64,000 nt of DNA from Schmidtea polychroa. Lineage: Eukaryota. The notes under the pieces are model-generated. The model had not been told where the DNA came from. It did no database searches and saw only the letters and a list, made by a program, of their open reading frames with translations. The first letter of the stretch is position 1; every line of letters begins with the position of its first letter. The position numbers and the translations under genes are program-made. This document shows, piece by piece, positions 28,423 through 40,700 of this stretch. Location of the stretch: assembly GCA_044892525.1 (NCBI GenBank), contig CM097885.1, positions 16,680,001-16,744,000 of the forward strand, written 5' to 3'.

Positions 28423-28667
28423 ATGTTATTTTATAAGATTGTTAAATTTGCTAAATGTAGAAACTGTCACACAGCCGTAACAAATCAAGCTTTGAAAGAC
28501 AGGTCTAGTATTTTAAGAAAATGGTTTACATTGGTGCCTTATATAGTTGTAGGAGTGTGTTTAGTGTCATTAACACAAATTAGATTATCCACATTTGATC
28601 CTTTTGAAGAGTAGATAGTATTTATGTTTTATAATTAATAATATTTTTTAGTGATCCGGATTTTTAA
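28423..28667 (+). CDS. Candidate two-exon microprotein (67 aa): basic N-terminus plus single hydrophobic segment
   Basis: Exon 28423-28610, 41-bp phase-2 intron (gtagat...tttttag), exon 28652-28667 (..EDDPDF*). AATAAA follows immediately. Confidence 0.45.
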
Positions 28668-30665
28668 ATAAAATGAAAAAGTACTAGTAGCAGCTGCAAA
28701 TGTAATGTCAAGAAATGATTCATTATTGTAATTTAGTAATAGTTTTTAAAATGTTCATTCTTGTTAAAGGATTCCTATCCTAATTGAGTGTGTTTAAGTA
28801 ATATTTTTAGTTGAATAAATTTATAGGATGTTTTTATAAAATCATAATAACCATTAAAGTGGTGGTTTTGATTTGATATTTTTAATGGAAATTGTATAGA
28901 AGCGATGTTATGAAAGCAAACTACTTGCGAACATTGCTGTCGGGAGTAATGGTTACTACTGCCGAGAACGGGGAGTTGAGTCGCTGGAGTCGGCGACGGA
29001 ATCATTTCTATCTGTCGGGAAAGTCACGGAACTTGATGGGCCTATAACATTTACTCCGGAAAGTGGTAGATTCGGGATGCGCGTTTCTAGCTTCACTCTG
29101 GTATAAAATCCTGCATAAGGTCTTTATATTCAACAGGCTCCTTTGTTCCTCCCGACATCTACTTAGCTTTTCCATTTAGACTTTCAATGTCACAATGTTG
29201 TCGGTTCTCGTCACACACTGCAAGTATGTTTCTGTGAAAATAGAGACATGTGAGTTCTATTGAAAAAAATGACACCTTTCAAGGCCATAGGGGTGGATGA
29301 TATATCGTTCCCGGAGGCGTCCGTGTAAACTAGTCAATATTTCCGGGAAAACTTCACAAGACTATTTCTTAAACGACAGGATGCCCGTAACTAGCGCCAC
29401 GTTGGTAATGCGTCAAATCGGCGAAATCCACAGGACAGGTGAGCTCCTACCTTAGAACTACTCTCCTGTAAAATTTCTCTCCCGGTACTGACTGCCGAGA
29501 GAAGGACTTACGCCATTTCAAAATCCCCCTGTCTCAGCTAGACCTCATAGGTCGGAAAATCCATTTTAAAGTCTAAGGACATTTATTTAAATGAAACAGT
29601 AAATAAGAATAACAATGGATAAAAATAAAAAGAATCTCGAAGGTGGTTGAGTAGTCGGTCCAAATCGTAGGTCGGTGGGATTTCCTCCTTCCATAGCGGC
29701 GATGATTTCGGCTGTGGCTTTAGCATTGCATGCGCCTCCGCTTCTGCCTTTTTGTTTTTAGTCCGTTCCGCCCGCGATAATTGTTTTCATTTCGGTTTTC
29801 TTTACAAGATGAAAAGTACAAAATTTTGCATTTAGAACTTTTCTAGAAAACTTTAGAATGTTTTATAAGAAAAACTTTGATATAAATAACCATCAATAAA
29901 TCTTTTTAGAAATGTGAACAATGTGATATTGGCTTGCGCATTCCCATTTGCTTCAAATCTTATCACATAAATCTTACTAATATTATATCAATGATATACA
30001 ACCAAAATATTCAACTATTTTAGAATATTTTCAAAAAAAAAGGGTTTTTCAAATTTTTTAAATGTGTAAAATGATTATCATGAAGTAATCTTCAAATAGA
30101 TTTAGTTTGGTTGAAAAAAATTCGGGACTCAAAGGGTTAATATTAGAGTCACAGTGATAAATTAAATATCTGAAATGCGCTAATAACGATAGCGTTAGAA
30201 TTAGACCAATAGCCCTAACCCCATATTTGTCGTACTTGATGCAGTTTATAACTTCTTTTTAACATTTTACTTATTTTGTGTTATTTCATGATTTACTCAA
30301 AATTCTAAGTTAAACTTGATGCATTTAAACAATGAAGCTGAAATTCAGTTTTTGCCCGATACAATCACACCCATAAAAGCCAGTTATAGGTAACTCAGAA
30401 ATAGTTTCTTTTTAATCTTAAAAATGATTTTTTCTCGATGCCTTTACAGATTGGAAATCACTGTTTTAAAGAACAATGTAATTTCATCTTGAATTATATT
30501 TTATATATTTCTTTTGTATTTATGATTGAATTAATCGTGGAAATATTTAATTTAGAATGAAAAGTATAAAATATGTTTAAATACGAAGTGTTAATTTTAA
30601 AAATGTAATTTTATAATAATAATAAATTTTCTAAGTAATCAGATTTGTTTTAAATTTTAATATAC

Positions 30666-31007
30666 ATGAATAAAATAAGTAACTTACAAAATTTGCATAA
30701 ATTTCGAGAATTTCTCAATGTTCCTAAAAGAACAAATTCTACATATAAATATGTCAAGCGTGGACTAGATATTTTATATATCCCTATATCAATAGGAATT
30801 GGATTTTATATTTATAGATATTTTTCTCCTAAAGTACTAAAGACAGTTGACGAAAGGTAATTTAATTAAAAATCAATATCATAACTTTAATAATTTAACA
30901 GTAGTTTCGTTATCAAATATACGAGTGGGGGAAAAGACCCTGTAAAAAGTGAAAAGAAATATGAAGAATGGGAAGATCTAGAAAATGAAATAAGTAAAGT
31001 TAAATAG
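30666..31007 (+). CDS. Candidate two-exon microprotein (98 aa): presequence-like N-terminus, TM segment, charged C-terminus
   Basis: Exon 30666-30856, 45-bp phase-2 intron (gtaatt...aacag), exon 30902-31007 open for 34 codons (SFVIKYTSGGKDPVKSEKKYEEWEDLENEISKVK*). Confidence 0.6.
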
Positions 31008-37046: not shown

Positions 37047-37470
37047 TAGGGTTGCCAGACGTCCCGGTATCCCGAAAGAGGACTTCGGGACACTCAATTG
37101 TCCCGGTTTTTGCAAACAAAATTAAAAATTTTGGAGGACAACTGCCTCCAAAGTTTCGTTTATTTATCACACCTTTTCTATTTTTCGAATTAGCTTTCTC
37201 GATGGATTTTAATATGAAACTTTTCCTTTTGGGTAGTTTGTTCTTGTTATGAATGACAGATGGTTAAGTTTTGTTTTTGTTTAATTTAATCTGTGGCCGT
37301 CGTGGGAATGCTACTTTTTTATTTACAATATTTAAAGCTATTAAATTATTTAAAAATATGTGAGTTTATTGATTTTTATATTTATACTTGGTTTATTATT
37401 TAAATTTTTTATATAGTTACTAGGGTTGCCAGACGTCCCGGTTTGTCTTGGTGAAAATCTGGCAACCTTA
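37047..37470. mobile_element. hAT-type MITE ~260 bp upstream of the AIF-like start codon
   Basis: TAGGGTTGCCAGA...TCTGGCAACCTTA ends, (A)ATTGAAT duplicated on both flanks, and an internal second TAGGGTTGCCAGACGTCCCGGT at ~37421. Confidence 0.8.
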
Positions 37471-37727
37471 ATTGAATAGCCCTGATTTATACAGTTAAAG
37501 TAAATTAATCAATTTATGATTATAATTATGTAAGTTAGATAATGAATGTAATAAATACATATTATATTATGTAAATATTAAATTAAATTTAACTTACTAT
37601 GAATGATGAATTTAAAAATTTGTTTATTTACTCAGTATAACGTTGAAAATTTAAAAGAGTTACTTGAATTAGTTCTTCATAAAACTTATTTAACAAATTA
37701 CATATTGTCATTTATTATATCAAACTA

Positions 37728-40700
37728 ATGAATAAGTTAAAAATTTTACGAAATATAATTCTAAAATATAGAAATTCTATCACATCTGTAAAAAATGAGA
37801 ATTTTTTATGGAAAGATATGAAGTTGCTCAAATCTCCCGTGAGTTTGATGTTAATTGGAGGAACGACGTTTTGTGCCAGTTATTATTGGTTTTTCATTAG
37901 AAATGATTCCTCATCAATTAAGACTGAAATACACCCTTCAGAGGAGTAATGTTAATTTCTAAATTTCTAAATTTCTAATTTCTTAGATATAATTCTTTGG
38001 AATCAATATTCAATCCTAGTAAACCTTCAAATGAATCTATTATATCAGATAAAACCAAAAGCCTCAAAACAGGTTAGCTTTGAAACAATTTGTTAATTTT
38101 GTAATAACTGAAATTTTTATTTTATTTATTAGATAGTTTTTTAAATTCGTTAAAACTGTATAAAATTGATTAAATATTACTTCAGAAAATTTTAACTTGT
38201 AAATATTTCAGTATTGTAATTAGGCACTACAATAATAATTTATAAATTATTTTTTATTATATAAATTTTTATCATTTAGTTATTAATTTTTATTATTCTT
38301 AAAATAATTTTTATAATTTATTTATCGTTATTATTAATTATTATTATTTAATTATTTATTATTTAATTATAATTATTTAAATTAAATATTTTTTATTTTA
38401 TTATTTTTTATCGTATTTTACTATTTTTTATTTATTTATATTATTTATTTAATTAATTTATTTTATAATTTTTAAAATTATTTTTTTTATTAATTATTTA
38501 TTTTATTTCTAATTGATTTTATTGATTTTTATTATTTATCATTTTTTATTATTATTTATTATTATTATTAATTATTATTATTCAATATTTCAATATTTAC
38601 ATTTAATAAATTGTGTATTGGAAAACATTTGTATATATAACTTTTAGCATAAATTCTGAAATTTACAATTACAATGCTTAAAAAATTTAAAAATCTAAAA
38701 GTGCACAAAAGTGCATTCAAATATGGAGAATCAACGTCTAGATAGGGAGTCGAAACTAGCTCTCGAAAAAGCTATTAACTTCTCAACTCTTTTATATGAG
38801 ATGATTAGAAGTGTTTTGCGGACGTATAAACGATTTGGAAGATACGAATCCATTAAACGAAGAGTCCCGAAAACAAGGAAAATAAACTCTGATGTTGAAA
38901 CACTCATAGTTGATGAAATTGAAAATGGTGTTTCTATCACTTTGAAATCACTTAAATATCGCATTTACACCGAAAGGGGAATAGTCGTTTCATTGCCCAC
39001 GATAGGGAGATCTGTGAAGAAGTTAGATTATTCCTGAGGTCAGAAATAGTCCAGAGAATATAACTCTGAGATATGATTATGCGAATATATATCTTCTACT
39101 TAATGAAGCAAACCGATGAAATGGGAGTGAGTTGTTCATTTTGACTGAATTACGGAAGAAGTTTATTGGTAACTACTGCTAGAAAAGTGATAAGAGCACT
39201 AAGGTCTAGAAAATATTCAATTTGTACTGGGATATCTAAGAGCGGAATAATTTTTCATAAGACAGAAAGTCGTGCTTATAATGGAGATACGTTTATTGAA
39301 TTTTTGGCAGAGCTAGTTAGAAAAATGAGTTGAATATGGAAAATTATACGAAAATTATGGATAATGTGGCATTCCACGTGATTTTAGTTTATAATTAGTT
39401 TATATTTCTACCCGATGAAGACATAATTTCTTATTGTGAACATTTGGATGCTCTTCATTCAGATATTAATAAACGATTTGATGATATTTTGAAAATGAAC
39501 ATACCTGATTGGATTTTCAAGTGCAGAAACATTAGAAGCGCCTTCACTACTTTTACTAATGACCGCCCATACATCCATAACGACCACCATGTTGGAACTG
39601 TGTACATAGGCTGAATATAGATGGGTAAGTGATCTCCATTTTAGAAGATAGACAATTCACAGTCTTCACTGATCACAAACCTCTTATCCACTGCCTCATC
39701 ATGAAAGACCCATCAAACAGCGTACACCGTCAGATAACATACCTATCATCTTTCAACATTAAGTTCACCCATGTCTCCGGTAAAAATAATGTGATCACTG
39801 ACTATCCTTCCAGAAACATTTCAGCATCTATCTCAGCAATCCCAGTCATTACTCAAGATGTTCTCCGTCCAACCCCACCGACCTCAGAGATCTGGTCCAC
39901 TTCAAAGACACGCTACAGACAATAGACGGCATACATTATGATACAATGTATAAAAACACTACACGCTTCGCTTTGGAAAGAAGCATTTCTCACCATTCAC
40001 AACTCGCACCACCCAAAGAACCAATCTTTAAACTGAAGGGTGACGGTTATCTAATATATTACAATTCTAGTTGTAAAGGTAAGATAGGTGCAACTAGAAT
40101 AGAAGATCAAGCAAAGCATAGATTAGAAATCCACACAGTATAAATTAATCAAAATGACACTTTCCAATGTGTATTATGCTCACAGCGTACTACAACCATT
40201 AAATGTAACTTTTACTAAATAGAATTAATGAACATATTAATGAAATGCATAAAGATTTAGCAATACCCCTCTATAGAGAAGTGACCAACATTAAGCTTAA
40301 AAAACTTACTCTAACAATAAATGAGGAGGGTACTATCAACTGTAATAACAAAATACGTAGGAAAACATGCATAAATAACCTTAACATTAGATCCACACAA
40401 GATGAGATTGATAAACATGTCAACAATAAACATAAGAATAAAATATGCAATACCAACCTAATCACATGCTACTGCGGTGAAATTTAAATTTAAAAGCGGC
40501 TACCAACAATTTTGGTTGCAAAAGGAGATTCCTCCGGCTTTTCCTGAAATATGGGCTGTAATTCAAAAGTTCTTAATTGCATTTCCTTCTTTATATTTGG
40601 TGGAACGCGCATTCAGTGCATTAACAAATTTATTAACCAAAAAAAGAAACCGATTGGAAATAGTCAGGCGCGGTGATTTAAGATTACTACTGACAAAAAT

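Follow-up and report, generated by a model that had tools for sequence, protein, structure and literature searches.

Two small spliced genes upstream of AIF in Schmidtea polychroa as candidate partial duplicates of its mitochondrial targeting exon

In a 64,000-nt stretch of the Schmidtea polychroa genome (assembly GCA_044892525.1, contig CM097885.1, positions 16,680,001 to 16,744,000 of the forward strand; hereafter the window, in whose numbering all positions are given), two short genes, L1 and L2, lie upstream of the gene for the oxidoreductase AIF. All three begin with an exon that encodes a presequence-like N-terminus followed by one predicted transmembrane segment (TM). How did two microprotein genes come to share the layout of the targeting exon of a large neighbor? 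The answer toward which sequence comparison leads us to lean is that L1 and L2 go back to old tandem duplications of part of AIF, its 5′ end, and were retained as inner-membrane microproteins that stand alone.

L1 and L2 are real, single-copy, separately processed genes, since each shows its own splicing in three probable RNA runs, L1 ends in a poly(A) site of its own, and each is found once in the genome (781 Mb; the window has about 27% GC). The transcript evidence comes from assembled contigs of four runs aligned to positions 27900-36600. Runs X1, X2 and X3, from two studies (P1 and P2), are probable RNA, a type guessed and not on record as RNA, and X6 is DNA-like; such contigs drop rare transcript forms and do not show true 5′ starts. 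The two genes comprise the following parts (UTR, untranslated region):

28423-28610, forward strand: L1 exon 1, 188 nt from the ATG at 28423, with a presequence-like N-terminus (residues 1-34) and a predicted TM (about residues 35-53); contigs of X1, X2 and X3 cover it from 28404
28611-28651, forward strand: L1 intron, 41 nt, phase 2, GT-AG; joint 28610-28652 in three of three probable RNA runs and none in X6
28652-28841, forward strand: L1 exon 2, with the last 4 codons, the stop at 28665-28667, the 3′ UTR, AATAAA at 28814-28819 and poly(A) after 28841, from an X2 contig with a loose end of 15 A
30666-30856, forward strand: L2 exon 1, 191 nt from the ATG at 30666, with a presequence-like N-terminus (residues 1-35) and a predicted TM (about residues 36-54); an X3 contig covers it from 30665
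30857-30901, forward strand: L2 intron, 45 nt, phase 2, GT-AG; 45-nt joint in three of three probable RNA runs and none in X6
30902-31197, forward strand: L2 exon 2, with 34 further codons, the stop at 31005-31007 and a 3′ UTR reaching at least 31197, from an X1 contig

The spliced products are 67 (L1) and 98 (L2) residues long. The L1 3′ end is set by a 379-nt X2 contig that runs from 28434 to 28841 and finishes in an A run, 22 nt past the AATAAA at 28814. A sequence-only reading of this stretch had given the coordinates, exon lengths, phase-2 introns (41, 45 and 41 nt with that of AIF) and product lengths (67 and 98 residues), all correctly, and both introns that it proposed for L1 and L2, 28611-28651 and 30857-30901, are spliced in X1, X2 and X3, with no X6 contig doing the same. 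It had also considered that these segments might prove to be high-copy repeats; this is ruled out by own-genome searches, which find L1 once and L2 once, and by DNA depth, which is 52-60 over both in X6. Probable RNA contigs leave bins 29064-29354 and 30228-30518 without cover, which is not used as evidence here.

Several features of the two genes are recorded in their own right. Residues 12-16 of L1 (28456-28470), inside the predicted presequence, read CxxCH, the form of the c-type haem motif; the aligned AIF residues are cysteine-free and the pattern is probably due to chance. Relative to the assembly, probable RNA contigs carry a 3-nt deletion at 28689 in the L1 3′ UTR, and run X1 has insertions of 14 and 40 nt in the L2 3′ UTR (31053-31197); both point to another strain or allele. 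DNA contigs also show a backward joint, from 30074 to 28400 (depth 42.6), probably a repeat-edge artefact.

The third gene has the following parts, of which the first three are predicted:

37728-37945, forward strand: predicted AIF exon 1, 218 nt from the ATG at 37728, with presequence (residues 1-38) and TM (about residues 39-57); single copy, and the likely parent of exon 1 of L1 and L2
37946-37986, forward strand: predicted AIF intron 1, 41 nt, phase 2, GT-AG, from the sequence
37987-38072, forward strand: predicted AIF exon 2, 86 nt, with a donor at 38073 in phase 1 that by frame analysis fits the acceptor at 43552
43553-51810, forward strand: AIF oxidoreductase and AIF_C exons (43553-43922, 43970-44213, about 49008-49484 and about 50914-51810), from Pfam and PDB

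The body of this gene matches Pfam Pyr_redox_2 and AIF_C above cut-off, its AIF_C match is the only one in this genome, and all 21 of its PDB matches are AIFM1 chains, human AIFM1 being the best (E 2.2e-12). We infer that the exon at 37728 is AIF exon 1. Together with the 86-nt exon 2 it joins 43553 in frame and places the enzyme domain at residue 128; no other presequence with TM and suitable donor occurs among 15 ATG frames in 38076-43500. A presequence plus TM module is what AIF requires, according to PMC7896227. Without use of the donor at 38073, the frame would meet a stop immediately (38073-38078), and the AIF locus itself would give a third microprotein, of 102 residues, with presequence and TM arranged as in L1 and L2.

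The three first exons are alike in composition and layout. Before the TM there are 8 K+R against 1 D+E in L1, 8 against 2 in L2 and 9 against 2 in predicted AIF exon 1; the best 19-residue hydropathy values are 1.98, 1.19 and 1.26, and the hydrophobic segments start at residues 35, 36 and 39, respectively. In charge the N-termini match real presequences of this genome, with 6-7 K+R compared with 4-6 and 1-2 D+E compared with 0-2. Past the TM, L1 has an acidic tail of about 14 residues in which five D/E are interrupted by others, and L2 a charged tail of 44 residues. All three loci lie on the same strand, and each intron, in phase 2, comes after a Glu codon that lies 10-16 residues beyond the TM. 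A layout pattern tuned post hoc to these features finds exactly three instances in the window, a mean of 0.1 in 30 block shuffles and none in 56 kb of other loci; as a tuned pattern, it tells us no more than that this layout is not part of the common background. Intron size is uninformative, because introns of about 45 nt are ordinary in a planarian-like genome such as this: lengths of 41-56 nt are predicted for AIF intron 3 and for introns in loci of the NDUFA4-like, EMRE, acyl-CoA dehydrogenase and enoyl-CoA hydratase type, three of these introns being phase 2, and S. mediterranea has an intron-length peak at 45-85 bp (PMC13594981). The common intron phase and position past the TM carry modest weight.

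Is there a trace of common descent beneath this likeness? Because presequences converge, control presequences were built from the same genome. Out of 23 loci gathered, 15 were looked at, six had a credible start and nine were dropped; L008, an EMRE gene, was added as a seventh. All seven control starts are script-predicted, and the loci are presumed to be acyl-CoA dehydrogenase, enoyl-CoA hydratase and similar genes. L1, L2, AIF and the controls make 45 pairs, which were compared at the DNA level over 33 codons anchored at the start, with one gap allowed and codon-shuffle nulls (20000).

The two pairs of interest take the first two ranks of the 45. L2 and AIF share 56 of 96 nucleotides (z 4.8; none of 20000 codon shuffles as high), and L1 and AIF share 50 of 96 (z 3.2-3.3, p 0.003), while the 42 control pairs have a mean z of 0.2 and a maximum of 2.65. 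When the first three codons, which the sequence-only reading had remarked on, are left out, z is 4.3 for L2-AIF and 4.5 for L1-AIF (p 0.00035 each), against a control maximum of 2.63. L1 and L2 are less alike (z 1.1-1.4), as expected, because two copies would each diverge from a slower parent. The protein N-termini follow the same order against shuffles: p 0.0016 for L2-AIF, 0.03 for L1-AIF and 0.21 for L1-L2. Shared ancestry is thus moderately supported by these statistics. The sequence-only reading had called the similarity among the loci low; that holds for TM, intron, exon 2 and upstream DNA and fails for the presequence DNA of L1 and L2, which stands above all 42 control pairs. Its proposal of a duplicated AIF targeting module gains moderate support from the excess in presequence-coding DNA, and the unlike TM, intron and exon 2 speak against it.

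Several observations weigh against descent from AIF or against a kept function. Presequences converge on K/R/N/L-rich amphipathic patterns. The L2-AIF protein score of 40 is beaten by one of 42 control pairs (enoyl-CoA-hydratase-family paralogues, 44), and the L1-AIF score of 27 is reached by four of 42. TM, intron, exon 2 and upstream DNA are at shuffle level in all 12 comparisons (z -0.8 to 1.0), the TM and tail show no protein similarity over shuffles, and local DNA alignment among the three loci yields nothing convincing. The anchored DNA test was devised after the protein alignment had been seen and has only seven controls. The parental exon at 37728 is itself an inferred AIF exon 1. The hydrophobic moment of the L1 N-terminus, 0.23, is the lowest of the ten, and both L2 coding variants among those listed from RNA contigs (30747 and 30931) are non-synonymous. 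The weak EMRE-like score of L1, taken up next, belongs with these points.

Alternatively, L1 and L2 could be unrelated small genes for single-pass membrane proteins that happen to lie beside AIF, their presequences having converged in an AT-rich genome, and L1 could then be a strongly diverged fourth paralogue of EMRE. The likeness is restricted to the presequence part, the control presequences are similar in style, introns of 41-50 nt are the norm in this genome (in line with PMC13594981), and the genome already has three EMRE and two ATP-synthase-e matches. L1 also resembles EMRE/SMDT1 (PF10161) in size, presequence, single TM and acidic C-terminus, and it scores 7.6 bits on a local EMRE-core profile, a value reached by 1 of 1000 segment shuffles (p 0.001). 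True EMRE paralogues, however, score 35-47 bits in leave-one-out comparisons. No PF10161 match above cut-off falls at L1, the three in the genome being L007, L008 and L009. All three contain Gxxx[G/A/S] in the TM, a motif that EMRE requires in order to bind MCU (PMC4892889), whereas L1 does not (G44 is followed by V48 at +4); it also lacks the pre-TM proline motif of the three local EMREs, has three residues fewer from the Gly to the acidic tail, and carries its intron at a position unlike that of L007 and L009. More generally, both pairs with AIF exceed all 42 control pairs, and adjacency, strand and intron phase would all have to be coincidence. Convergence of unrelated genes is a serious contender that we nevertheless consider unlikely.

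Other family assignments were tried and rejected. A CxxC likeness between L1 and L007 falls away, the L007 pattern lying in a non-coding frame. A resemblance of L1 to NDUFA4, and of L2 to ATP synthase e or COX6C, is not supported: the B12D match falls at L016 and not at L1, ATP-synt_E matches occur at L019 and L020 only, and COX6C is without any match in the genome. Against the three EMRE genes above the Pfam cut-off, the genome has a single MCU match (L021).

Searches for relatives elsewhere returned little. Word-index searches with exon 1 of L1 and of L2 gave no match; the search also missed a clear AIF exon 3, so its sensitivity is low, and for this reason missing homologues are no evidence of novelty. 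Exact look-up of exon fragments (none of three found) is uninformative. A metagenome match, L045, which we take to be the last TM of a bacterial DedA-like protein, was rejected as chance. L1 has no match in the PDB and L2 has seven chance matches only (E 0.2-1.7). Atlas neighbors of L1 are bacterial zinc-ribbon-like clusters with scores below 0.9, probably owed to its two cysteines; exon 1 of L2 has mainly small single-pass subunits of mitochondrial complexes as neighbors, again all below 0.9, which provide a lead only. A record-level literature search, with supplements and planarian annotation databases outside its scope, found no description of either gene.

If L1 and L2 are duplicates, has anything kept them? 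They might be AIF 5′ copies without function, transcribed and spliced, with short frames that are not usefully translated. The missing homologues and the non-synonymous nature of both listed L2 variants fit such remnants, but the frames, ATG, donor and hydrophobic segment persist while intron and flank are at background identity, and the indels listed for L1 and L2 are all in UTRs, none in coding parts. Under simulated neutral decay to 58% or 52% identity, the share of 5000 runs in which 62 codons stay open is 0.4% or 0.3%, and ATG and GT are kept as well in 1 of 5000 (58%) or 0 of 5000 (52%); these simulations use substitutions only, and surviving copies are those that get noticed. Since neutral decay so rarely keeps 62 codons open together with ATG and GT, the reading frame would, in duplicates, be under selection. 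The comparison, with introns at background identity, favors a maintained coding function and makes functionless remnants improbable.

The shared phase also raises the idea that exon 1 of L1 or L2 is an alternative first exon of AIF that swaps its targeting and anchor module, as the TM exon of vertebrate AIF2 does. All three donors are phase 2, so that either exon would join 37987 in frame, and a precedent exists in exon 2b of AIF2 (PMC7896227). Contigs nevertheless cross each gene's own junction unbroken, and L1 is polyadenylated at 28841. Among the partly aligned records listed (three of three in X3, five of six in X2 and six of 36 in X1), none has a loose end at either donor; the acceptor at 37987 lies beyond the aligned stretch, which ends at 36600, and contigs of this kind could miss a minor isoform. 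Alternative first exons, an option of the sequence-only reading, are therefore not supported, L1 and L2 being spliced to their own second exons and L1 having its own poly(A), and we regard them as quite improbable.

The same reading had suggested a trans-spliced or co-transcribed cluster, and the three genes could form a mitochondrial operon resolved by a spliced leader. They lie on the same strand, planarians have spliced-leader trans-splicing according to PMC10899757, and one X1 contig has a 30-nt loose 5′ end before 30678. The X3 contigs, on the other hand, carry no leader, their first bases being genomic (28404 and 30665), and no spliced leader is seen at the contig ends traced. A loose 5′ end at 28457, considered as a leader, was rejected as a chimera: it maps to a spectrin-like PH exon (L017) on another contig. 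The genes are further separated by gaps of 1.8 and 6.5 kb, in which repeats, pieces of Gypsy elements and a hAT element lie. An operon is accordingly the least probable of these explanations, and very improbable.

The largest of the intervening elements is

33790-36799, forward strand: hAT-type DNA transposon lying between L2 and AIF; its 14-nt terminal inverted repeats are perfect and it has a 733-residue open reading frame at 34449-36650, from open reading frame and repeat analysis

Its DNA depth in X6 is 530-970, compared with about 30-60 in the flanks; it is apparently intact and flanked by TA repeats, and probable RNA contigs cover it patchily. Broken Gypsy-like pol fragments lie at 25.7-27.1, 31.5-32.9 and 39.6-39.9 kb, two of them having a 94-nt inverted match (93%) in common. 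Elsewhere in the window are an Rfam mir-753 match (6270-6331, reverse strand), an intron-less proteasome alpha-subunit-like reading frame with a degenerate 3′ end (55559-56251), possibly a retrocopy, and a TRAF-like gene with RING, zinc finger and MATH domains (58261-59845).

On the duplication reading, each copy would have taken the AIF 5′ end, that is predicted exon 1 and intron 1, by tandem duplication, and an early stop would have arisen in the second exon of each. Selection would have kept the import signal and the hydrophobic stop-transfer segment while the remainder drifted. By analogy with AIF, as portrayed in PMC7896227, the products would be imported via the presequence and halted in the inner membrane, the N-terminus facing the matrix and the short tail (about 14 residues in L1, 44 in L2) exposed to the intermembrane space. 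Their most likely role there would not be that of enzymes but of small subunits with an accessory or regulatory part in an inner-membrane complex; because their TM sequences have diverged from that of AIF, a new partner would be likelier than dominant-negative competition with AIF.

Known systems offer partial parallels. Human AIFM1 has a mitochondrial localization sequence at residues 1-41 and a transmembrane domain at residues 67-83 (PMC7896227). Like its N-terminal module, L1 and L2 would combine a presequence, one TM and a short intermembrane-space linker, and their presequence DNA resembles predicted AIF exon 1; unlike AIFM1, they have no oxidoreductase or AIF_C domain, have their own stop and 3′ end, and carry a TM that is not recognizably related. 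AIF2 (exon 2b) and AIFsh2, as outlined in the same paper, likewise show an anchor varied by an alternative exon and truncated mitochondrial forms of AIF, but these are splice forms of one gene that keep enzyme domains, whereas L1 and L2 are separate loci without a passenger domain. Mitolamban and mitoregulin are similar in having fewer than 100 residues, one TM and a predicted mitochondrial membrane location; they differ in that L1 and L2 appear to derive from AIF. Targeting peptides can be gained by exon shuffling or duplication, according to PMC7456531, which cites Long et al. (1996). There, too, a copied targeting exon founds a new organelle-targeted gene, but it is a passenger that gains a signal, whereas in L1 and L2 signal and anchor make up nearly the whole product.

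Should the duplication reading be true, the locus would let the origin of mitochondrial microproteins be traced to the targeting exon of a large conserved gene, the parent and its two offspring being neighbors; targeting-exon copying is usually described only for signals grafted to passenger proteins. A bolder and doubtful extension is that the AIF anchor exon is a cassette duplicated twice, whose microproteins may tune AIF import, anchoring, proteolytic release or AIF-dependent respiratory-chain assembly in planarians. Even if L1 and L2 were merely unrelated small genes, they would be two unannotated planarian microproteins. Both are expressed and accessible to RNA interference in a tractable regeneration model, and their neighbor AIF has a central role in respiratory-chain biogenesis and in cell death.

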